Positions 2,637 to 16,353 of a DNA stretch of 16,353 nucleotides are shown one piece after another (position 1 is the first letter of the stretch; every line of letters begins with the position of its first letter). The notes under the pieces are model-generated. The model did no database searches. It was given only the letters and a program-made list of their open reading frames with translations, and had not been told where the DNA came from. The stretch is from the IMG/VR virus record IMGVR_UViG_2718218139_000006; one strand, 5' to 3'. The DNA is from a virus (Duplodnaviria; Heunggongvirae; Uroviricota; Caudoviricetes). A program made the position numbers and the translations under genes.

Positions 2637-2775
2637 TTGTCCTCCTCTTAGCTGCTGAGGGAGTTTGTGACCGATATATCTGACATGATATTAAGCTTAT
2701 GGCAGGTACATCTCTTGACTGGTCATAGAGATAAATTTAATGCTGAGAAATGCAGTATTGAATTTATCAATTTTT

Positions 2776-3015
2776 CTATTTCCTGCGTATGGCACGTAAC
2801 TTCTTAATGTGTTCTGCCGTTTCGATCTCTTCTGCTATCCGATCTGCATCAGCTTTATTCACAGGTTCAAAGTCATGATTAAAGCGGAACATGCTGGCGA
2901 TACATGTTCTGCCTTTTCGGATGTAGTGAACTTTGTTGTGGGTAGAACGCAGGATTTTGCAGGGAGTGCCGTGGTGATCGACGTACCAGGTGTTAGGAAA
3001 AATGATTCTGAACAT
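2776..3015 (-). CDS. Hypothetical small protein (79 aa) in the early-left operon position
   Basis: ATG ORF with a good Shine-Dalgarno (GAGGTG, 4-nt spacer before the ATG at 3015), co-oriented with xis/int. No family recognised. Confidence 0.5.
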   Translation of the reverse strand: MFRIIFPNTWYVDHHGTPCKILRSTHNKVHYIRKGRTCIASMFRFNHDFEPVNKADADRIAEEIETAEHIKKLRAIRRK

Positions 3016-3062
3016 TTTTACACCTCAATTGGACGATGTTGAAATTTGCTGCTTTGAGGCCA

Positions 3063-3281
3063 TCACAGTCCCCATTGTTTGTTCTTAAGTTCGATCTCCT
3101 CCTGGCAACTTGCACAAGTCCGACAACCCTGAACGGCCAGGCGTCTTCGTTCATCTATCGGATCGCCACACTCACAACAATGAGTGGCAGATATAGCCTG
3201 GTGGTTCAGGCGGCGCATTTTTATTGCTGTGTTGCGCTGTAATTCTTCAATTTCTGATGCTGAATCAATGATGTCTGCCAT
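3063..3281 (-). CDS. DksA/TraR-family C4 zinc-finger protein (phage TraR-like)
   Basis: 72 aa with CxxC-(17 aa)-CxxC (CECGDPIDERRRLAVQGCRTCASCQ) and size like TraR/lambda Orf73-type proteins. Same orientation as the xis/int operon. Confidence 0.65.
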   Translation of the reverse strand: MADIIDSASEIEELQRNTAIKMRRLNHQAISATHCCECGDPIDERRRLAVQGCRTCASCQEEIELKNKQWGL

Positions 3282-3330
3282 CTTTCATTAATCCCTGAAT
3301 TGTTGGTTAATACGCTTGAGGGTGAATGCG

Positions 3331-3356
3331 AATAATAAAAAAGGAGCCTGTAGCTC
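3331..3356 (-). terminator. Candidate intrinsic terminator on the minus strand
   Basis: Minus-strand hairpin GGAGC-TACAG-GCTCC followed by TTTTTTATTATT, just downstream of the 3380 stop. The stem is only 5 bp, so it is weak. Confidence 0.35.
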
Positions 3357-3379
3357 CATGATGATTTTGTTTTTCATGT

Positions 3380-3595
3380 TCACCGTTCCTTAAAGACGCC
3401 GTTTAACATGCCGATCGCCAGGCTTAAATGAGTCGGTGTGAATCCCATCAGCGTTACCGTTTCGCGGTGCTTCTTCAGTACGCTACGGCAAATGTCATCG
3501 ACGTTTTTATCCGGAAACTGCTGTCTGGCTTTTTTGATTTCATAATTAGCCTGACGGGCAATACTGCGAAGGGCGTTTTCTTGCTGAGGTGTCAT
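3380..3595 (-). CDS. Hypothetical small protein (71 aa from the ATG at 3595; an alternative upstream start at 3727 would give 115 aa)
   Basis: ORF MTPQQENALRSIARQANYEIKKARQQ... in early-left orientation, followed by the candidate terminator. Its 5' region overlaps the plus-strand Q-like ORF, so one of the two starts is probably wrong. Confidence 0.35.
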   Translation of the reverse strand: MTPQQENALRSIARQANYEIKKARQQFPDKNVDDICRSVLKKHRETVTLMGFTPTHLSLAIGMLNGVFKER

Positions 3596-4191
3596 TGAAC
3601 AAGTCCCATGTCGGCAAGCATACATACAAACGAAAGAAACCGCGCATTCTGGATGAAGTGACCGGCAGGTTAATAACGCTGGATAATCCGCCGATACCCG
3701 GTAAGCAGTCACGGGCGAAAGGCTCATCCATTGCCCTGGTCAGTCCGATCGAGTTCTCAACATCATCATGGCGCCGCGCGGTTCTGTCTCTCGAAGAACA
3801 TCAGAAAGCGTGGTTGCTGTGGAGTTACAGCGAAAGTGTTCGCTGGGAACATCAGGTCACCATAACGCAGTGGGCATGGAGCGAGTTTAAGACTCTGTTG
3901 GGTACCAGGAAAATTGCAGGTAAGACACTGGAACGTTTGAAGAAGTTGATCTGGCTGGCGGCACAGGATGTGAAGAACGAGCTGGCAGGGCGTAAGACCT
4001 ATGAATACCAGGAGTTGGCATCACTGGTGGGAGTGACATCAAAAAACTGGTCTGAGACATTTACTGAACGCTGGGTTGCAATGAAGCACATTTTTCTACA
4101 GCTTGATAGCCAAGCTTTATTGCTTTTAACGAAAACACGTTCAAAACAAAAGACCACATTTTCACAGCAAGATATTGCAAAACTGGATTAA
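3589..4191 (+). CDS. Putative late-gene regulator (Q-antiterminator-like by position), HTH-like segment near the C-terminus; start uncertain, possibly 5'-truncated
   Basis: 200-codon ORF immediately upstream of a terminator-rich leader and the lysis cassette, the canonical Q position. Contains an HTH-like stretch (YQELASLVGVTSKNWSETF). There is no in-frame ATG near the 5' end (only GTG/TTG candidates) and no recognised similarity to lambda Q. Confidence 0.35.
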   Translation: MSLNKSHVGKHTYKRKKPRILDEVTGRLITLDNPPIPGKQSRAKGSSIALVSPIEFSTSSWRRAVLSLEEHQKAWLLWSYSESVRWEHQVTITQWAWSEFKTLLGTRKIAGKTLERLKKLIWLAAQDVKNELAGRKTYEYQELASLVGVTSKNWSETFTERWVAMKHIFLQLDSQALLLLTKTRSKQKTTFSQQDIAKLD

Positions 4192-4260
4192 AAATCATAT
4201 ATTTTATGTAAATCTGATATTTTGCCAATGTTGTACGCACTGGCCGTAATCCAAATTCAA

Positions 4261-4296
4261 GCCCGAGGTTTAAAGCCTTGGGCTTTTCTGTTTCTG
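4261..4296 (+). terminator. Candidate intrinsic terminator / structured late-leader element
   Basis: Hairpin GCCCGAGG-tttaaag-CCTTGGGC (8 bp with one G-U pair) followed by a U-rich tract (ttttctgtttctg). Confidence 0.45.
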
Positions 4297-4372
4297 GGCG
4301 GTGAGTATCCTTCCAACGTACCCCAGCCAGGGTGTCTTCAGCTGTTGAGTTGATATTGCTTAACCCTCTGTT

Positions 4373-4398
4373 GCCAGCTACATGCTGGCTTTTTTATT
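4373..4398 (+). terminator. Candidate tR'-like intrinsic terminator between the Q-like gene and the lysis genes
   Basis: Hairpin GCCAGC-tacat-GCTGGC followed by TTTTTTATT. Confidence 0.55.
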
Positions 4399-4512
4399 CC
4401 AGGCTTGCGGGGAGCATCAACTCCGTGCTTTGTCGTTAAATTACCCCGTGAGCCTGATTTCTGACATTTAACGTCCCGGCCTTTTGTCGGCGGCGAAACA
4501 TTGGCTATTCAT

Positions 4513-4818
4513 ATGCACGAAAAAGAGAGCCTTGCCGGAGCGTTCTGGCTCGTTTTGCTGATCATCGCAGGTTGGGGCGGTCTGGTCCGCTACCTGATAG
4601 ATGTGAAGCAGAGTAAAGCAACGTGGAGCTGGATAAATGCTTTGGCTCAGATAGTGGTGTCGGGATTCACCGGTGTTATTGGTGGCCTGATCAGTATCGA
4701 AAGTGGATTCAGTATTTACATGATTCTCGCGACAGCGGGGATTAGTGGTGCGATGGGTTCGGTTGCACTGACATACTTCTGGGAACGACTGACAGGGGTG
4801 AAAAATGCAAAATCTTAA
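4513..4818 (+). CDS. Holin (not lambda S-like), about 101 aa from ATG 4513; the ORF track begins at TTG 4501
   Basis: Small protein with several hydrophobic transmembrane-like segments and a charged C-terminus, directly upstream of and overlapping the endolysin gene. Confidence 0.7.
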   Translation: MHEKESLAGAFWLVLLIIAGWGGLVRYLIDVKQSKATWSWINALAQIVVSGFTGVIGGLISIESGFSIYMILATAGISGAMGSVALTYFWERLTGVKNAKS

Positions 4819-5281
4819 TCCTCAGCGTAAAGCTTTCCTCGATATGGTGGCATGGTCAGAAGGAACGGATAACGGACGGCAGAAAACCAGAAATCATGGT
4901 TATGACGTCATTGTAGGCGGAGAGCTATTTACTGATTACTCCGATCACCCTCGCAAACTTGTCACGCTAAACCCCAAACTCAAATCAACAGCAGCCGGAC
5001 GTTATCAGCTTCTTTCACGCTGGTGGGATGCTTACCGTAAGCAGCTTGGCCTGAAAGACTTCTCCCCCAAAAGCCAGGACGCAGTGGCATTGCAGCAGAT
5101 TAAAGAACGTGGCGCTTTACCGATGATTGATCGCGGTGATATTCGTCAGGCAATTGACCGTTGCAGCAATATCTGGGCTTCACTGCCGGGCGCTGGTTAT
5201 GGTCAGTTCGAGCATAAGGCTGACAGCCTGATTGCAAAATTCAAAGAAGCTGGCGGAACGGTCAGAGAGATTGAGGTATGA
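4805..5281 (+). CDS. R: Endolysin R (lytic transglycosylase), lambda R homolog
   Basis: 158 aa; from residue 8 (QRKAFLDM...) onward matches lambda R as I recall it, while the first 7 residues differ. Confidence 0.9.
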
Positions 5282-5739
5282 GCAGAGTAACCGCGATTAT
5301 CTCCGCTCTGGTTATTTGCATCATCGTCTGCCTGTCTTGGGCTGTTAATCATTACCGTGATAACGCCATTACCTACAAGGCCCAGCGCGACAAAAATGCC
5401 AGAGAACTGAAGCTGGCGAACGCGGCAATTACTGACATGCAGATGCGTCAGCGTGATGTTGCTGCGCTCGATGCAAAATACACGAAGGAGTTAGCTGATG
5501 CTAAAGCTGAAAATGATGCTCTGCGTGATGATGTTGCCGCTGGTCGTCGTCGGTTGCACATCAAAGCAGTCTGTCAGTCAGTGCGTGAAGCCACCACCGC
5601 CTCCGGCGTGGATAATGCAGCCTCCCCCCGACTGGCAGACACCGCTGAACGGGATTATTTCACCCTCAGAGAGAGGCTGATCACTATGCAAAAACAACTG
5701 GAAGGAACCCAGAAGTATATTAATGAGCAGTGCAGATAG
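5278..5739 (+). CDS. Rz: Spanin inner-membrane subunit Rz
   Basis: 153 aa, [58 protein letters not shown]..., matching lambda Rz. ATGA start/stop overlap with R. Confidence 0.9.
5498..5680 (+). CDS. Rz1: Spanin outer-membrane lipoprotein subunit Rz1, embedded in the +1 frame of Rz
   Basis: 60 aa, [24 protein letters not shown]... with a lipobox (VVGC) and a proline-rich stretch, matching lambda Rz1. Confidence 0.85.
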
Positions 5740-5740
5740 A

Positions 5741-5762
5741 GTTGCCCATATCGATGGGCAAC
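5741..5762. terminator. Candidate bidirectional terminator hairpin between convergent Rz and bor
   Basis: Perfect 9-bp stem GTTGCCCAT-atcg-ATGGGCAAC lying exactly between the Rz stop (5739) and the bor stop (5771). Confidence 0.5.
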
Positions 5763-5770
5763 TCATGCAA

Positions 5771-6064
5771 TTATTGTGAGCAATACACACGCGCTTCCAG
5801 CGGAGTATAAATGCCTAAAGTAATAAAACCGAGCAATCCATTTACGAATGTTTGCTGGGTTTCTGTTTTAACAACATTTTCTGCGCCGCCACAAATTTTG
5901 GCTGCATCGACAGTTTTCTTCTGCCCAATTCCAGAGACGAAGAAATGGTGGGTGATGGTTTCCTTTGGTGTTACTGCTGCCGGTTTGTTTTGAACAGTAA
6001 ACGTCTGTTGGGCACATCCTGTAATAAGCAGGGCCAGCGCAGTAGCGAGTAGCATTTTTTTCAT
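5771..6064 (-). CDS. bor: Bor lipoprotein (serum-resistance-associated lysogenic conversion protein)
   Basis: 97 aa, MKKMLLATALALLITGCAQQ... with signal peptide and lipobox (LITGC); matches lambda Bor. Confidence 0.9.
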   Translation of the reverse strand: MKKMLLATALALLITGCAQQTFTVQNKPAAVTPKETITHHFFVSGIGQKKTVDAAKICGGAENVVKTETQQTFVNGLLGFITLGIYTPLEARVYCSQ

Positions 6065-6208
6065 GGTGTTATTCCCGATGCTTTTTAAAGTTCGCAGAAT
6101 CGTATGTGTAGAAAATTAAACAAACCCTAAACAAACCCTAAACAATGAGTTGAAATCTCATATTGTTAATATTTATTAATGTATGTCAGATGCGAAGGAT
6201 CGTCACTG

Positions 6209-6274
6209 TATTCCCGGATTAACTATGTCCGCAGCCCTGACAGGGAAACTCCTCTGCGGGAGTGTCCGGGAATA
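6209..6274. repeat. Nested dyad-symmetry element in the bor-downstream intergenic region
   Basis: Perfect 10-bp inverted repeat TATTCCCGGA (6209-6218) / TCCGGGAATA (6265-6274) enclosing an inner inverted repeat CCGCAG (6229-6234) / CTGCGG (6254-6259) and a central CCCTG-a-CAGGG. Confidence 0.6.
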
Positions 6275-6366
6275 ATTAATAACGATGCACACAGGGTTTA
6301 GCGCGTACACGTATTGCATTATGCCAACGCCCCGGTGCTGACACGGAAGAAACCGGACGTTATGAT

Positions 6367-6900
6367 TTAGCGTGGAAAGATTTGTGTAGTGTTCTGAATG
6401 CTCTCAGTAAATAGTAATGAATTATCAAAGGCATAGTAATATCTTTTATGTTCGTGGATATTTGTAACCCATCGGAAAACTCCTGCTTTAGCAAGATTTT
6501 CCCTGTATTGCTGAAATGTGATTTCTCTTGATTTCAACCTATCATAGGACGTTTCTATAAGATGCGTATTTCTTGAGAATTTAACATTTACAACCTTTTT
6601 AAGTCCTTTTATTAACACAGTGTTATCGTTTTCTAACACAATGTGAATATTATCTGTGGCTAGATAGTAAATATAATGTGAGACATTGTGACGTTTTAGT
6701 TCAGAATAAAACAATTCACAGTTTAAATCTTTTCGCACTTGATCGAATATTTCTTTAAAAATGGCAACCTGAGCCATTGGTAAAACCTTCCATGTGATAC
6801 GAGGGCGCGTAGTTTGCATTATCGTTTTTATTGTTTCAATCTGGTCTGACCTCTTTGTGTTTTGTTGATGATTTATGTCAAATATTAGGAATGTTTTCAA
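6367..6900 (-). CDS. Conserved lambdoid late-region hypothetical protein (at the position of the lambda ORF downstream of bor)
   Basis: 177-aa ORF co-oriented with bor. Its position relative to Rz/bor/cos matches an unnamed lambda ORF. Confidence 0.55.
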
Positions 6901-7062
6901 TTAATAGTATTGGTTGCGTAACAAAGTGCGGTCCTGCTGGCATTCTGGAGGGAAATACAACCGACAGATGTATGTAAGGCCAACGTGCTCAAATCTTCAT
7001 ACAGAAAGATTTGAAGTAATATTTTAACCGCTAGATGAAGAGCAAGCGCATGGAGCGACAAA

Positions 7063-7269
7063 ATGAATAAAGAACAATCTGCTGATGATCCCTCCGTGGA
7101 TCTGATTCGTGTAAAAAATATGCTTAATAGCACCATTTCTATGAGTTACCCTGATGTTGTAATTGCATGTATAGAACATAAGGTGTCTCTGGAAGCATTC
7201 AGGGTAATTGAGGCAGCGTTGGTGAAGCACGATAATAATATGAAGGATTATTCCCTGGTGGTTGACTGA
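7063..7269 (+). CDS. Small conserved lambdoid hypothetical protein (68 aa)
   Basis: ATG ORF at the position of a small lambda right-end ORF. Confidence 0.45.
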
Positions 7270-7433
7270 TCACCATAACTGCTAATCATTCAAACTACTT
7301 AACCTGTGACAGAGCCAACACGCAGTCTGTCACTGTCAGGAAAGTGGTAAAACTGCAACTCAATTACTGCAATGCCCTCGTAATTAAGTGAATTTACAAT
7401 ATCGTCCTGTTCGGAGGGAAGAACGCGGGATGT

Positions 7434-7628
7434 TCATTCTTCATCACTTTTAATTGATGTATATGCTCTCTTTTCTGACGTTAGCCTCCGACGGCAGGCT
7501 TCAATGACCCAGGCTGAGAAATTTCCGGACCCTTTTTGATCAAGAGCGATGTTAATTTGTTCAATCATTTGGTTAGGAAAGCGGATGTTGCGGGTTGTTG
7601 TTCTGCGGGTTCTGTTCTTCGTTGACAT
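7434..7628 (-). CDS. Small basic protein, YlcI/DUF3950-like, possible ribbon-helix-helix fold
   Basis: 64 aa, MSTKNRTRRTTTRNIRFPNQMIEQINIALDQKGSGNFSAWVIEACRRRL...; Arg-rich N-terminus followed by a beta-alpha-alpha-like pattern. Resembles the small protein found next to cos/nohD in DLP12-type prophages (from memory). Confidence 0.5.
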   Translation of the reverse strand: MSTKNRTRRTTTRNIRFPNQMIEQINIALDQKGSGNFSAWVIEACRRRLTSEKRAYTSIKSDEE

Positions 7629-7827
7629 GAGGTTGCCCCGTATTCAGTGTCGCTGATTTGTATTGTCTGAAGTTGTTTTTACGTTAAGTTGATGCGGATC
7701 AATTAATACGATACCTGCGTCATAATTGATTATTTGACGTGGTTTGATGGCGTAGATGCACGTTGTGACATGTAGATGATAATTATTATCATTTTGCGGG
7801 TCCTTTCCGGCGATCCGACAGGTTACG

Positions 7828-7839
7828 GGGCGGCGACCT
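7828..7839. other. cosN: the 12-nt lambda cohesive-end sequence GGGCGGCGACCT (terminase nicking site)
   Basis: Exact 12-mer, preceded by lambda right-end sequence (...TCCGACAGGTTACG) and followed by lambda left-end sequence (CGCGGGTTTTCGCTATTTATGAAAATTTTCCGG). Confidence 0.9.
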
Positions 7840-7875
7840 CGCGGGTTTTCGCTATTTATGAAAATTTTCCGGTTT

Positions 7876-7993
7876 AAGGTGTTTCCGTTCTTCTTCGTCG
7901 TAACTTAATGTTTTTATTTAAAATACCCCCTAAAAAGAAAGGAAACGACAGGTGCTGAAAGCGAGCTTTTTGGCCTCTGTCGTTTCCTTTCTC
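7876..7993 (+). promoter_or_regulatory. cosB: terminase small-subunit binding sites R3, R2, R1 with an intervening AT-rich IHF-type site (I1)
   Basis: Three copies of the CGTTTCC core: R3 about 7880-7895, R2 inverted about 7937-7952, R1 about 7975-7993, with an AT-rich segment at 7898-7927. Lies between cosN and nu1 as in lambda. Confidence 0.8.
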
Positions 7994-8016
7994 TGTTTTT
8001 GTCCGTGGAATGAACA

Positions 8017-8536
8017 ATGGAAGTCAACAAAAAGCAGCTGGCTGACATTTTCGGTTCGAGTATCCGTACCATTCAGAACTGGCAGGAACAGGGAATGCCC
8101 GTTCTGCGAGGCGGTGGCAAGGGTAATGAGGTGCTTTATGACTCTGCCGCCGTCATAAAATGGTATGCCGAAAGGGATGCTGAAATTGAGAACGAAAAGC
8201 TGCGCCGGGAGGTTGAAGAACTGCGGCAGGCCAGCGAGACAGATCTCCAGCCAGGGACTATTGAGTACGAACGCCATCGACTTACGCGTGCGCAGGCCGA
8301 CGCACAGGAGCTGAAAAATGCCAGAGACTCCGCTGAAGTGGTGGAAACCGCATTCTGTACTTTCGTGCTGTCGCGGATCGCAGGTGAAATTGCCAGTATT
8401 CTCGACGGGATCCCCCTGTCGGTGCAGCGGCGTTTTCCGGAACTGGAAAACCGACATGTTGATTTCCTGAAACGGGATATCATCAAAGCCATGAACAAAG
8501 CAGCCGCGCTGGATGAACTGATACCGGGGTTGCTGA

Positions 8537-8562
<26 letters not shown>
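8017..8562 (+). CDS. nu1: Terminase small subunit Nu1
   Basis: 181 aa, MEVNKKQLADIFGSSIRTIQNWQEQGMPVLRGGGKGNEVLYD..., matching lambda Nu1 (N-terminal winged HTH). Confidence 0.95.
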
Positions 8563-12056
<3,494 letters not shown>

Positions 12057-12060
12057 CGTC

Positions 12061-12636
12061 ATGTCAGAGCAGAAAAAGACCTGGGCGGCTGAAGACCAGC
12101 TTCGCGGGAGCTGGATGGCAGGCCTGAAGTCCGGCTGGAGTGAGTGGGAAGAGAGCGCCACGGACTGTATGTTGCAGGTAAAAAGTGCAGCCACGCAGAC
12201 CTTTGATGGTATTGCACAGAATATGGCGGCGATGCTGACCGGCAGTGAACAGAACTGGCGTAGCTTCACCCGTTCCGTGCTGTCCATGATGACAGAAATT
12301 CTGCTTAAGCAGGCAATGGTGGGGATTGTCGGGAGTATCGGCAGCGCCATTGGCGGGGCTGTTGGTGGCGGCGCATCCGCGTCAGGCGGTATGGCTTACA
12401 GCCGTGTGTCGACTTTCTCCGGGGATTATCTCCGCGTAACTGACAACAAGGGGAAAACGCACGACGTGCTGACCGGAAGTGATGACGGTCGCCACAGCAA
12501 CACGTCTCTGGCGTGGGGAGCTGGCGTGCAGTTTAACCCGACCGAATCCGTGGCCATTGATATTGCTTATGAAGGCTCCGGCAGTGGCGACTGGCGCACT
12601 GACGGTTTCATCGTGGGTGTCGGTTATAAGTTCTGA
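12061..12636 (+). pseudogene. Chimeric ORF: internal C-terminal segment of tail tape-measure H fused in frame to the C-terminal about 80 residues of outer-membrane protein Lom
   Basis: First 110 residues (MSEQKKTWAAEDQLRG...GGAVGGGASASGG) match the C-terminal region of lambda gpH; the remainder (...SLAWGAGVQFNPTESVAIDIAYEGSGSGDWRTDGFIVGVGYKF) is the Lom/Ail-family C-terminus. Junction near 12388-12393. Confidence 0.8.
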
Positions 12637-12663
12637 TTAGCCAGGTAACACAGTGTTATGACA

Positions 12664-12689
12664 GCCCGCCGGTTCAGGCGGGCTTTTTT
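12664..12689 (+). terminator. Intrinsic terminator downstream of the lom remnant
   Basis: 7-bp GC-rich stem GCCCGCC-ggttca-GGCGGGC followed by TTTTTT. Confidence 0.7.
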
Positions 12690-12700
12690 GTGGGGTGAAT

Positions 12701-15700
12701 ATGGCAGTAAAGATTTCAGGTGTACTGAAAGACGGCACAGGAAAACCGGTAGAGAACTGCACCATTCAACTGAAAGCCAGACGGACCAGCAGCACGGTGG
12801 TGGTGAACACGGTGGCCTCTGAAAATCCGGATGAAGCCGGTCGTTACAGCATGGACGTTGAGTACGGTCAGTACAGCGTCATTCTGTTGGTGGAAGGATT
12901 CCCGCCGTCACATGCCGGGACCATCACCGTGTATGAAGACTCACAACCGGGTACGCTGAATGATTTTCTTGGTGCCATGACGGAGGATGATGCCCGTCCG
13001 GAGGCACTGCGCCGTTTTGAGCTGATGGTGGAAGAGGTGGCGCGTAACGCGTCCGCGGTGGCACAAAACACGGCAGCCGCGAAGAAGTCAGCCGGCGATG
13101 CCAGCACATCTGCCAGTGAGGCGGCAACCCATGCGACTGATGCTGCAGGCTCAGCACGCGCAGCCAGCACGTCAGCCGGACAGGCCGCGTCGTCGGCTCA
13201 GTCAGCGTCTTCCAGCGCAGGAACGGCATCAACAAAGGCCACTGAAGCGGAAAAAAGTGCTGCCGCTGCAGAGTCCTCAAAAAGCGCGGCGGCCACCAGT
13301 GCCGGTGCGGCGAAAACGTCAGAAACGAATGCCGCAGCGTCACAACAATCAGCAGCCACTTCTGCATCCACCGCGACCACGAAAGCGTCAGAAGCTGCCA
13401 CCTCAGCCAGGGATGCGGCGGCCTCAAAAGAGGCAGCGAAATCATCAGAAACGAACGCATCCTCGAGCGCCAGTAGCGCAGCTTCCTCGGCAACGGCGGC
13501 AGGAAATTCCGCGAAGGCGGCAAAAACGTCCGAGACGAACGCTAAGTCTTCTGAGACGGCAGCGGAACAGAGTGCCTCCGCAGCAGCAGACTCAAAAACA
13601 GCGGCTGCATCATCTGCCAGCGCCGCGTCAACAAGTGCCGGGCAGGCCTCAGCCAGTGCCACCGCTGCCGGAAAGTCGGCAGAAAGTGCCGCATCGTCTG
13701 CTTCAACAGCCACAACGAAGGCTGGCGAAGCCACTGAACAGGCCAGCGCAGCAGCGAGTTCTGCTTCCGCAGCGAAGACATCCGAAACGAACGCGAAAGC
13801 GTCGGAAACCAGCGCAGAATCCTCAAAAACGGCTGCCGCATCGTCAGCCAGTTCGGCGGCGTCATCGGCATCATCTGCGTCTGCTTCAAAAGATGAGGCG
13901 ACCAGACAAGCGTCAGCAGCGAAGAGCAGCGCCACGACGGCATCCACGAAGGCGACAGAGGCAGCTGGCAGTGCGACGGCGGCAGCTCAGAGCAAAAGTA
14001 CGGCGGAATCCGCGGCAACGCGCGCCGAGACAGCAGCTAAACGGGCAGAGGATATTGCATCCGCCGTGGCGCTTGAGGATGCGAGCACGACGAAAAAGGG
14101 GATAGTACAGCTCAGCAGTGCGACCAACAGCACTTCCGAGTCACAGGCGGCAACGCCAAAAGCCGTTAAGGCCGCGTATGACCTGGCTAACGGGAAATAC
14201 ACCGCACAGGATGCAACGACAGCACAGAAAGGGATAATCCAGCTAAGCAGCGCGACCAACAGCACATCTGAAACGCTTGCCGCGACACCAAAGGCAGTAA
14301 AAACAGCCTATGACAATGCTGAGAAACGTCTGCAGAAAGATCAGAACGGTGCGGATATCCCTGGCAAAGACACCTTTACGAAAAATATTGGTGCCTGCCG
14401 TGCCTTCGGTGGGTCAGTAAGCACAATAACAGGAAACTGGACGACTGCACAGTTTATCGAGTGGCTGGATTCTCAGGGAGCATTTAACCATCCCTACTGG
14501 ATGTGCAAGGGTTCCTGGTCTTATGGCAATAATAAAATCATTACTGATACTGACTGCGGTAATATTCATCTCGCCGGAGCTGTCATTGAAGTAATGGGGA
14601 TAAAGTCAGCGATGACGATCCGCATTACCACACCGACCACCTCCACTGGTGGTGGAACAACTAACGCCCAGTTTACCTATATTAATCACGGAACAGATTA
14701 TTCACCTGGCTGGCGAAGGGACTATAACTCCAGAAATAAGCCAACGGCATCAGAGATCGGGGCGTTACCGTCAGGTGGAACAGCAGTATCATCAGTTAAT
14801 CTGGCTTCAAAAGGTCGGGTAACCGCGCTGACAGACAATACGCAGGGGGCAACAGGTCTTGAGTTATACGAGGTGTATAACAACGGATATCCAACAGCGT
14901 ATGGAAATATCATTCACCTGAAAGGGATGACAGCCGTTGGCGAAGGTGAGTTACTCATCGGCTGGAGTGGTACAAGCGGTGCTCATGCTCCGGCATTTAT
15001 TCGTTCACGACGGGATACGACCGACGCAAACTGGTCGCCGTGGGCGCAGCTTTACACCTCGGCTCATCCTCCTGCAGAGTTTTATCCAGTCGGTGCACCA
15101 ATCCCGTGGCCATCAGATACCGTTCCGTCTGGTTATGCCCTGATGCAGGGGCAGACTTTTGACAAATCTGCCTACCCGAAACTTGCAGCGGCTTATCCGT
15201 CAGGCGTGATCCCTGATATGCGTGGCTGGACGATTAAGGGCAAACCTGCCAGTGGTCGGGCCGTATTGTCTCAGGAACAGGACGGCATTAAATCGCATAC
15301 CCACAGCGCCAGCGCATCCAGTACGGATTTGGGGACGAAAACCACATCGTCGTTTGATTACGGCACTAAATCCACGAATAACACTGGTGCGCATACCCAT
15401 AGTTTAAGTGGCAGCACGAATGCAGCTGGTAATCACAGCCATAGAGATGGCCGTCGATTTAACCCCAGTGTTTTTAAAGATACTTATCAATATGGTTATA
15501 CAAGCTCAGGTCAAAATACCTGGGGTGTACAAGGCTCAGTAGGTATGTCTACGGGGTGGTTAGCTAATACCAGTACAGATGGTAATCATAGCCACTCACT
15601 GTCCGGCACAGCAGCATCTGCAGGTGCACACGCGCATACTGTCGGTATTGGTGCTCATACGCACTCCGTTGCGATTGGTTCACATGGACACACCATCACC

Positions 15701-15772
15701 GTTAACGCTGCTGGTAACGCGGAAAACACCGTCAAAAACATCGCATTTAACTATATTGTGAGGCTTGCATAA
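12701..15772 (+). CDS. stf: Side tail fibre protein Stf (about 1023 aa from ATG 12701), apparently full length
   Basis: N-terminus [17 protein letters not shown]...; long Ala/Ser/Thr-rich repetitive shaft; two copies of the tail-fibre repeat (G-I-[VI][11 protein letters not shown]...ATPKAVK); His-rich C-terminal tip with repeated HxH motifs ([46 protein letters not shown]), ending ...[11 protein letters not shown] as in lambda Stf / T4 gp37-type fibres. Confidence 0.9.
13080..14060 (+). repeat. Low-complexity GC-rich coding repeat region inside stf (Ala/Ser/Thr-rich shaft)
   Basis: Reiterated motifs such as AKTSETNA, SSASxASTxAxxA; this region generates long artefactual ORFs in the other five frames. 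Confidence 0.8.
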
Positions 15773-16353
15773 TGGCATTCAGAATGAGTGAACAACCACG
15801 GACCATAAAAATTTATAATCTGCTGGCCGGAACTAATGAATTTATTGGTGAAGGTGACGCATATATTCCGCCTCATACAGGTCTGCCAGCAAACAGTACC
15901 GATATTGCACCACCAGATATTCCTGCTGGCTTTGTGGCTGTTTTCAACAGTGATGAGGCATCGTGGCATCTCGTTGAAGACCATCGGGGTAAAACGGTTT
16001 ATGACGTAGCGTCAGGGGACGCGTTATTTATTTCTGAACTCGGTCCGTTACCGGAAAATGTTACCTGGTTATCGCCGGAAGGGGAGTTTCAGAAGTGGAA
16101 CGGCACAGCCTGGGTGAAAGATGCAGAAGCAGAAAAACTGTTCCGGATCCGGGAGGCGGAAGAAACAAAAAACAGCCTGATGCAGGTAGCCAGTGAGCAT
16201 ATTGCGCCACTTCAGGATGCTGTAGATCTGGAGATCGCAACGGAGGAAGAAAACTCGTTGCTGGAAGCCTGGAAGAAGTATCGGGTGTTGCTGAACCGTG
16301 TTGATACATCAACTGCACCTGATATTGAGTGGCCTGTAATACCAGAAGTTTAA
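15772..16353 (+). CDS. tfa: Tail fibre assembly protein Tfa (chaperone)
   Basis: 193 aa, [79 protein letters not shown]..., matching lambda Tfa. TAATG overlap with the stf stop. Confidence 0.9.

Follow-up and report, generated by a model that had tools for sequence, protein, structure and literature searches.

The open reading frame at 12061-12636 of the analysed stretch (below, the window, 16,353 nucleotides; the frame and its neighbouring parts lie on the + strand) is very probably a pseudogene formed at a deletion junction in a lambda-like prophage beside icd. It joins an internal piece of the tape-measure gene H to the 3' end of the outer membrane protein gene lom. The frame itself appears to be of little importance, one more scar of prophage decay, and its sequence is already public, in some entries under the name "phage tail tape measure protein" and in others flagged as a pseudogene. 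What could matter more widely is a single point, namely that the lom breakpoint recurs, with nucleotide precision, in many other prophages.

Structure of the chimeric frame

The frame was delimited using the list of open reading frames, the translation, and Pfam and phmmer searches. It consists of 191 codons from an ATG to a TGA stop. The first 110 codons are derived from H (M612-G721), so that the start codon is the internal Met612 of that gene, and the following 81 are derived from lom (M119-F199). This agrees with the original prediction, in which the frame started at an internal methionine of gpH, ran through 110 tape-measure residues and continued into about 80 terminal residues of Lom. 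The translation ends in ...GFIVGVGYKF, with the aromatic last residue of a beta-signal.

Both halves have domain matches far above chance. Residues 16-90 match the Pfam family Tape_meas_lam_C (PF09718, E 6.4e-22), and residues 105-191 match positions 113-199 of the 199-position profile of Ail_Lom (PF06316, E 2.5e-43). In phmmer searches against PDB, residues 1-115 correspond to residues 612-726 of the lambda tape-measure protein (8iyk_H, E 2.3e-61), and residues 104-191 to residues 119-206 of Lom (9wso_C, E 2.3e-24). Thus each part has the relatives originally assigned to it, tape-measure proteins on one side and Lom/Ail-family barrels on the other. The tryptic peptide spanning the junction is QAMVGIVGSIGSAIGGAVGGGASASGGMAYSR.

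The remnant of H occupies 12037-12391 and corresponds to lambda nucleotides 12351-12705; its codons 612-721 lie inside the chimeric frame. It is 98.6% identical to H of lambda and of the prophage of E. coli SLK172, and 99.2% identical to the closest intact allele, from strain N32. A full-length gpH has about 850 residues and spans the tail tube; only codons 612-721 are left here, in a frame that is closed by a TGA at 12034 and exits H at 12391. The neighbourhood is not that of a tape-measure gene either, as a portal fragment is found upstream in place of the G/T chaperone genes, and the lom remnant downstream in place of M-L-K-I-J. No other tail genes of this cluster were found by Pfam in the window or in the annotation of related loci.

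The 3' remnant of lom (12392-12636) comprises codons 119-199 and the stop codon, that is, the last 44% of the Ail/Lom barrel domain. The complete eight-strand domain is not present, since codons 1-117 have been deleted. The remnant is of the Rac type. It is 99.5% identical to intact lom genes, and its identity to lomR of the K-12 Rac prophage is 100% over window positions 12388-12452 and 95% through stf.

The H-lom junction

The breakpoint was mapped on an intact lambdoid prophage, L003 of E. coli SLK172, to which the window was aligned. Its genes follow the usual order H, M, L, K, I, J, lom, stf, with H at 3228-5789 and lom at 11654-12253. Window positions 12037-12391 align to SLK172 H with 98.6% identity, and positions 12388-13122 align to SLK172 lom and the 5' end of stf with 94.6% identity. 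The three-way alignment places the crossover within a 4-bp microhomology GGTA common to H and lom, at 12388-12391, inside the interval 12388-12393 that had been predicted. With a caret marking the breakpoint, the sequences are GGCGGTA^CAGCC in H, GCGGGTA^TGGCT in lom and GGCGGTATGGCT in the window. As both genes are in codon phase 0 at 12388, Gly721 of gpH coincides with Gly118 of Lom.

Relative to SLK172, a segment of 6617 bp is absent, containing the last 132 codons of H, the genes M, L, K, I and J, and codons 1-117 of lom. The predicted loss of M through J together with the 5' part of lom is thereby borne out. The two halves are collinear with the intact prophage and the intervening genes are gone; the joint carries the 4-bp microhomology and no mobile-element sequence. 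This is the pattern expected of a deletion-junction pseudogene. Illegitimate recombination mediated by the microhomology joined H codon 721 to lom codon 118/119 within GGTA, deleting approximately 6.6 kb of tail genes, and the two reading frames coincided by chance.

A different origin of the same joint is illegitimate recombination between two resident lambdoid prophages, one contributing a lambda-type H and the other a Rac-type lom-stf-tfa arm, by rearrangement or patchwork replacement. The H piece is indeed as close to lambda itself as stated above, whereas the lom piece is identical over 65 nt to K-12 lomR and does not align to lambda lom until position 12509. Moreover, E. coli genomes carry a median of four places matching this region, and the Stf'-'Lom and Lom'-'Stf chimeras described below demonstrate rearrangements that are not simple deletions. 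However, the intact prophages SLK172 L003 and N32 L017 carry this very combination of H and lom types in cis, in the standard order and 6.6 kb apart. Since such prophages exist, and the gene order is collinear on both sides of the junction, a simple deletion is sufficient, and we consider an origin from two prophages improbable.

The surrounding prophage

The host element is a thoroughly gutted lambdoid prophage at icd of E. coli. Alignment to lambda shows that window positions 7828-12038 correspond to lambda nucleotides 1 to approximately 4212, covering cos, nu1, A, W and the beginning of B. Here the portal gene is joined to H by another junction (12034-12038), with a microhomology AA at 12037-12038. 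It reflects a separate deletion of about 8.1 kb, from portal to H. The TGA at 12034-12036, which closes the H frame, lies 24 nt upstream of the first in-frame ATG, that of Met612. Because this deletion left a TGA and the next start is an internal methionine of H, the frame of 191 codons is open.

Other genes of the element are damaged as well. The portal gene (10662-12056) is broken into two frames, 10662-11600 and 11649-12056, both matching Phage_portal_2, and its C-terminus is absent; its stop codon sits 4 nt before the ATG of the chimeric frame. The PGAP note on it reads "internal stop; incomplete". The integrase gene int is interrupted by an IS3-family element at 941-2204. The match to the antiterminator Q begins at position 34 of the 220-position Pfam profile, so its N-terminus is gone. 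The immunity and replication region is absent by comparison with lambda. The side tail fibre gene stf (12695-15772; Pfam phage_tail_N, Phage_fiber_2, Collar) is retained directly downstream of the chimera, and so is the tail fibre assembly gene tfa (15772-16353; Pfam Caudo_TAP).

In related complete genomes the element is located between icd and the manganese catalase/ompT region. PGAP marks as pseudogenes in these relatives Q, the portal gene and the H remnant, the latter as [quoted passage not shown].

Expression signals and the likely product

No match to a sigma-70-like promoter was found in 10400-12900. The energy of the anti-Shine-Dalgarno duplex at the ATG at 12061 is -1.5 kcal/mol, as compared with -3.3 to -6.6 kcal/mol for the real genes of the window. 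Among the in-frame starts, Met19 (the codon 19 ATG) alone has a good Shine-Dalgarno match, GGGAG with a 4-nt spacer (12106-12117; -6.6 kcal/mol). An intrinsic terminator inherited from lom follows the frame at 12663-12692; it has an 8-bp stem with seven GC pairs and a subsequent T run, and the same sequence is found after lambda lom.

The N-terminus of the chimera, MSEQKKTWAAEDQLRGSW, is polar and does not resemble a Sec signal peptide, whereas that of intact Lom is MRKVCAAILSAAICLAVSGASAWA. The sole hydrophobic stretch is the glycine-rich segment at residues 73-103, with a Kyte-Doolittle mean of 1.5 over 19 residues. The original opinion that the product lacks a signal peptide and is most likely non-functional is therefore upheld. 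The Ail/Lom/OmpX fold requires all eight strands, and in barrels of the OmpX/Ail type a chain that has no signal peptide and less than half of the barrel neither reaches the outer membrane nor closes. As profile positions 113-199 of 199 are all that is present, the chimeric chain alone could not form a closed barrel.

The absent promoter match, the weak Shine-Dalgarno pairing at the ATG and the truncated Q are indirect signs that the chimera may be neither transcribed nor translated. We infer that the frame is not a functional gene: it belongs to a late operon with a truncated Q, lacks its own promoter and ribosome-binding site, and would encode a product with no signal peptide and with more than half of the barrel missing.

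The opposite reading is that the chimera is an expressed, domesticated small protein, starting at the ATG at 12061 or, more plausibly, at Met19. Its function might then reside in the H segment at residues 73-103, in the C-terminal domain of Lom, or in both, and it could be a cytoplasmic or inner-membrane factor like the 3' fragment of LomR. Several observations point in this direction: the frame is open on at least 138 contigs, counting the versions of 191 and 173 residues together; Met19 has the strong GGGAG signal; and the product has its hydrophobic stretch. In addition, a preprint on K-12 describes the 3' fragment of Rac lomR, which has no signal peptide, as transcribed and its product as soluble and bioactive (bioRxiv 10.1101/2021.11.15.468771).

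On the other hand, no promoter-like site was found in the 1.6 kb upstream, and the operon has a truncated antiterminator Q. The GGGAG signal cannot be considered an adaptation, because its completing G is a polymorphic base found in intact H genes too, as in strain N32. The lineage-specific coding changes, considered below, mostly alter the protein, one of them being a stop, and PGAP treats the region as a pseudogene. Thus an expressed protein has only a slim chance of being the correct explanation. The stable product originally thought possible likewise loses ground, given the lack of a Shine-Dalgarno sequence at the ATG and of a promoter match, the nonsense codon 4 of the sister lineage, and the PGAP annotation.

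Distribution, haplotypes and drift

The junction was found in only five of 5426 complete E. coli genomes, and both junctions are the same in all five. Protein searches extend this distribution. The exact 191-residue protein was read on 23 contigs (28 index blocks), where each place shown had identical neighbouring genes, and the cluster at 90% protein identity has 42 members, all from E. coli, on at least 138 contigs. Recurrence of the fusion in other genomes, which had been suggested as a check, is thus observed. Many cluster members are proteins cut at contig ends. One carrier, L005 (GCA_003015365.1), hardly differs from the window and even has the IS insertion. The divergence between carriers and the window is 0-0.3% over 6-14 kb, and both junctions are common to all carriers, which shows a single inherited event. 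The pseudogene arose once and has been inherited since, and the remnant is drifting.

Since the lom-stf region is multi-copy in these genomes, and given the many cluster members ending at contig ends, one could suspect an assembly artefact produced by repeated prophage sequence. However, the five complete genomes with this junction come from independent projects in the USA and Japan, and the junction is also seen on chromosome-length contigs of other assemblies. A collapse of repeats is unlikely because the joint shares only 4 bp, which is too little. We regard an artefact as scarcely credible.

Two haplotypes of the remnant can be distinguished. At 12070 the window has C (CAG, Gln4), while the sister haplotype has T, creating a TAG stop; at 12271 the sister haplotype has a second difference, replacing Arg71 by Gly. 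The sister haplotype includes five complete genomes; all three that were read have the TAG codon. Strain SMN152SH1 is one of its carriers. Because of the stop at codon 4, gene callers start the sister frame at Met19, yielding a product of 173 residues (P0002). In practical terms, the two junctions together with the Q4stop and R71G haplotypes are a lineage marker of one inherited cryptic prophage at icd.

Compared with the closest intact H allele among the 5426 genomes, that of N32, the remnant has two non-synonymous substitutions (S36C and S38L) and one synonymous substitution. Overall, four of five lineage-specific coding changes alter the protein, one of them being the stop, although these counts are small. 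Such few changes fit neutral drift, with no sign of purifying selection, within the limits of the small numbers.

Some observations point against a pseudogene. The 191-codon frame is intact and identical in all carriers of haplotype A that were read, although at a divergence of 0.1-0.3% no more than about one change would be expected. The GGGAG at codon 19 is of the same kind, and the frame of 173 codons starting at codon 19 is still open in the TAG haplotype, so that translation from this start is conceivable.

Other chimeras with the Lom C-terminus

A search of the chimera against 5.8 billion proteins yielded many E. coli frames in which the N-terminal part of a phage protein is followed, in frame, by the C-terminus of Lom. 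Among the partners are Nu1, terminase A, W, portal B, Z, U, V, H, K, L, I and J, and further a ParB-like protein, a holin-region protein and Stf. When 1.84 billion representatives were searched with intact Lom by HMMER, without filters, 51 of the best 150 hits were chimeras of this kind. Both Stf'-'Lom and Lom'-'Stf chimeras exist, so that rearrangements beyond simple deletions have occurred in this region. Out-of-frame Lom junctions are present in the databases as well. One apparent chimera, a protein with Lom residues 1-120 plus foreign sequence (P0148), was rejected, as it looks like sequencing-adapter junk at a contig end.

The in-frame fusion was originally considered unusual for a random deletion. 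This does not hold, as one deletion in three is in frame by chance and dozens of other in-frame Lom chimeras exist, alongside the out-of-frame ones. Thus the in-frame state of the window junction carries no weight.

A recurrent breakpoint in lom

The other half of that description, that the deletion was random, has to be revised too. The lom end of the deletion is not random, but is a hot spot common to many independent prophage deletions in E. coli. In 21 of the 72 distinct chimeras that were mapped, the Lom homology starts at codons 116-119. Ten of these have the form ...[L/V]^AG[V/M]AYS, two ^MAGV, and nine, including the window, ^(G)MAYS. In the unbiased representative sample, 12 of 51 chimeras begin Lom at codons 116-119. 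Uniform breakpoints over codons 17-161 would give approximately 1.4 (P = 1.1e-8), and the local density in codons 100-135 would give approximately 3.4 (P = 6.5e-5). Such a protein-based sample under-represents short or clustered proteins.

Ten independent junctions, from different prophage types and chromosomal sites, were read at the DNA level, and all of them fall at two exact sites. Five have ...TA^TGGCTTAC, with the partners H (the window), A, K, a ParB-like gene and J. The other five have ...N^TGGCGGGT[A/G]TGGCT, with the partners HK97 gp10-like gene, U, Nu1, Z-like gene and W. The hot-spot stretch of 12 nt is thus GCGA^TGGCGGGTA^TGGCT, at Lom codons 116-119. Where the intact sequence of the partner is available (H, A, K, U, J), the microhomology is 2-4 nt. 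Which position is used varies with the allele. If codon 119 is ATG, the break is nearly always at the second ATGGC, and if it is GTG, at the first. A third ATGGC, at codon 100, was used as a breakpoint twice.

Selection for in-frame products can be ruled out as the cause of this clustering. Four partner junctions at the same two sites are out of frame (P0271-P0274), a fifth looks alike (P0276), and an internal lom deletion (P0278) belongs here as well. Therefore the clustering stems from mutation, not from selection for a fusion protein. Since some junctions at this lom site in other prophages are out of frame, it is not the reading frame that is conserved, which is a further argument against an expressed chimera.

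Other candidate causes were considered. Processing by RecBCD guided by Chi was rejected, as the only Chi site of the window is at 5019 and none is near lom. The possibility of an IS insertion with a 9-bp duplication followed by loss of the IS was checked for IS1, alone among the IS families, using synthetic lom/IS1 junction queries in both IS1 orientations; no IS1 was found at the site in 5426 complete genomes, and the two genomes with an IS1 in the vicinity of lom have it at a distance of 150-360 nt. Self-targeting by a type I-E CRISPR system with an ATG PAM was also rejected, because the ATG and the presumed protospacer are kept in the junctions. This system came into question because Cas3 makes deletions in one direction, but type I-E targeting would not leave the PAM and protospacer intact.

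The lom gene contains two pairs of direct repeats, TGGTTCAGCG, occurring twice 42 nt apart, and GATGGCGGG, occurring twice 48 nt apart. These explain the recurrent in-frame deletions and duplications of 16 residues within lom alleles. There is also a 12-nt inverted repeat, noticed post hoc, with arms at codons 83-86 and 117-120, each coinciding with a cluster of breakpoints, and a predicted long-range stem ends exactly at the junction base. The predicted single strands of the lom region have unremarkable fold energies (z from -1.1 to -1.5), and the structure is not preserved in a V-type allele, which folds differently. A hairpin or cruciform may thus be viewed as a weak lead to the cause of the hot spot.

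One tentative possibility, to which we assign somewhat less than an even chance, is that lom codons 116-119 are a sequence-specific fragile site at which a nuclease, a topoisomerase or a replication pause starts leftward deletions of head and tail genes again and again, in many unrelated lambdoid prophages of E. coli, sparing stf and tfa. Under this interpretation the position used would be set by ATG versus GTG at codon 119. The lom stretch might be prone to breakage or polymerase pausing, and the free or nascent lom end could then be joined to variable upstream sites at 2-4 nt of microhomology, or the template could be switched there; both steps are suggested with low confidence. The loss of prophage function is commonly seen as a matter of random deletions on which selection then acts. 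A nucleotide-precise, allele-dependent hot spot in lom would point instead to a specific mechanism of DNA breakage or template switching. If the fragile site is real, it would be a preferred, mechanistically specific path by which lambdoid prophages turn cryptic.

Comparison with known systems

RecA-independent illegitimate recombination in E. coli, as described by Ikeda et al. (cited via PMC11784200), includes short-homology-dependent deletion, alternative end-joining and gyrase-mediated events. The window junction and the other lom junctions are similar in that unrelated genes several kilobases apart are joined at 2-4 nt of microhomology. They differ in that the lom end takes only two positions, about 8 nt from each other, and the opposite end is variable, which the general mechanisms do not predict. 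Neither a Chi site, nor an IS1 element, nor an exceptional hairpin accounts for the confined end.

Residues 1-110 of the chimera are 97% identical to residues 612-721 of lambda gpH (853 residues), including the glycine-rich hydrophobic segment. The window keeps 13% of gpH, as the N-terminal 611 and the C-terminal 132 residues are missing. The genes of its partners in lambda tail assembly, G, T, V, U, Z, M, L, K, I and J, are all absent from this prophage. With the eight-stranded outer-membrane barrels of the Lom/Ail/OmpX family the chimera shares the last 81 residues, with the terminal ...GVGYKF, but it has no signal peptide. We take Lom (PDB 9wso), Ail (3qra) and OmpX (1qj8) to be the structures representing this family.

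A case that bears on a possible product is LomR-B3, a signal-less 3' fragment of lomR from the K-12 Rac prophage. A preprint reports that it is transcribed, soluble and diffuse in the cytoplasm (bioRxiv 10.1101/2021.11.15.468771), and that it is bioactive in a heterologous assay, where it triggers a vibriophage reporter (Sun, Mashruwala, Fei, Bassler, bioRxiv 10.1101/2021.11.15.468771). Its residues 8-9 are required for this activity (bioRxiv 10.1101/2021.11.15.468771). Like the window, LomR-B3 derives from a 5'-truncated lom of the same allele, in its own case downstream of IS5, and it lies wholly inside the Lom part of the chimeric frame. Unlike the chimera, it begins further downstream and has another N-terminal extension, and residues 8-9 are probably not derived from Lom. 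Its expression plausibly comes from IS5, whereas no comparable source of a promoter adjoins the window frame. Since LomR-B3 is reported to be transcribed, soluble and active, truncated Lom remnants are not necessarily inert and can persist as proteins, but this is no proof that the chimera of the window is produced.

The closest analogue is the ynaA (tmpR)-lomR region of the same K-12 prophage (b1368/b4570). There too a fragment of a tape-measure gene abuts a 5'-truncated lom of the same allele type, followed by stf and tfa (stfR and tfaR) and the remainder of the right arm, all other tail genes are deleted, and parts of the region are annotated as remnants or pseudogenes. However, the Rac tape-measure fragment is an N-terminal piece of a non-lambda protein and shows no similarity to lambda H at the DNA level. 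In Rac, lom is broken at codon 69, as opposed to codon 118 in the window. YnaA runs 94 nt into lom out of frame, whereas the window fusion is in frame, and lomR is interrupted by IS5. The two fusions are thus independent events. The chimeric frame of the window is best read as an ordinary pseudogene, the scar of a deletion in a cryptic prophage, for which K-12 provides a known precedent.

Deletion breakpoint and length variation in lom

Codons 116-119 of lom, corresponding to 12379-12393 of the window, form a recurrent breakpoint, observed also in loci L018, L019, L021 and L023-L028. Numerous deletions that arose independently, in E. coli prophages unrelated to one another, end at one or the other of two positions approximately 8 nt apart, GCGA|TGGCGGGTA|TGGCT. 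The upstream partners of these deletions are variable, and the microhomology at the junctions is 2-4 nt. The choice between the two positions tracks codon 119, which is either ATG or GTG.

Intact lom also contains two pairs of direct repeats, TGGTTCAGCG with copies 42 nt apart and GATGGCGGG with copies 48 nt apart. Both lie at 11936-12013 of L003, the intact prophage of E. coli SLK172, in the region that is deleted in the window. In many database Lom alleles, 14 or 16 residues have been deleted in frame, or 16 residues duplicated, exactly between these repeats. The resulting length forms (183, 185 and 215 aa) occur on several different N-terminal allele backgrounds. In GCA_001572345.1 (L029 4360-4485), a contig end resembling a transposase sequencing adapter (CTGTCTCTTAC...) is fused to lom codon 120. 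The database 'Lom' protein P0148 (161 aa) is a spurious product of this adapter-like end.

Portal gene, H remnant and tail fibre genes

The portal gene is broken at 11600-11649 and survives as two separate ORFs (10662-11600 and 11649-12056); PGAP annotates an internal stop, and the alignment to the portal gene B of lambda contains one gap. Immediately downstream, in the H part of the chimeric H'-'lom ORF (12061-12636, plus strand), an A-to-G polymorphism at 12110 replaces Asn17 by Ser and changes GGGAA at 12106-12110 into GGGAG, which gives the H remnant an internal Shine-Dalgarno match of good quality, four bases 5' of the in-frame Met19. The same G is present in an intact H gene of strain N32.

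After its N-terminal domain and before the fibre repeats, Stf has a very long repetitive stretch rich in alanine, serine and threonine (residues ~130-480; window 13100-14150). A 335-aa ORF that overlaps it (13098-14105), read in another frame than stf, is probably a by-product of the Stf repeats. A plus-strand match to the Rfam family IS009 (RF02111) lies at 16115-16313, within the 3' portion of the gene for tail fibre assembly, scoring 227.9 bits against the gathering score of 117.

Stepwise decay and composition of the prophage

The prophage integrase is interrupted by an IS3-family element of 1264 bp (941-2204) with two minus-strand ORFs, one encoding 100 aa (HTH_Tnp_1) and the other 272 aa (rve). 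The element is absent from the five complete-genome relatives. The virtually identical locus L005 (GCA_003015365.1) carries a second copy, 100% identical, inside the downstream manganese catalase gene.

The immunity/replication region is wholly absent from the window, which constitutes a third deletion joint, and the antiterminator Q (3589-4191) lacks ~33 N-terminal residues. In the sister haplotype, with TAG at codon 4 of the chimeric ORF and R71G, an additional 733 bp are gone, corresponding to window 2681-3413 with the genes for DUF4222 and DksA/TraR-type zinc-finger proteins; therefore the element is decaying stepwise across different lineages.

Across window 4501-7700 and L001 5700-10700 and 18500-25200, the genes for lysis and those near cos carry DLP12 names in PGAP, namely rzpD, bor, ybcV, ybcW, ylcI and nohD, and a few kb past the prophage lies an ompT island that includes a stray fragment of a tail fibre assembly gene. 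More than one decayed element may have contributed to this locus.
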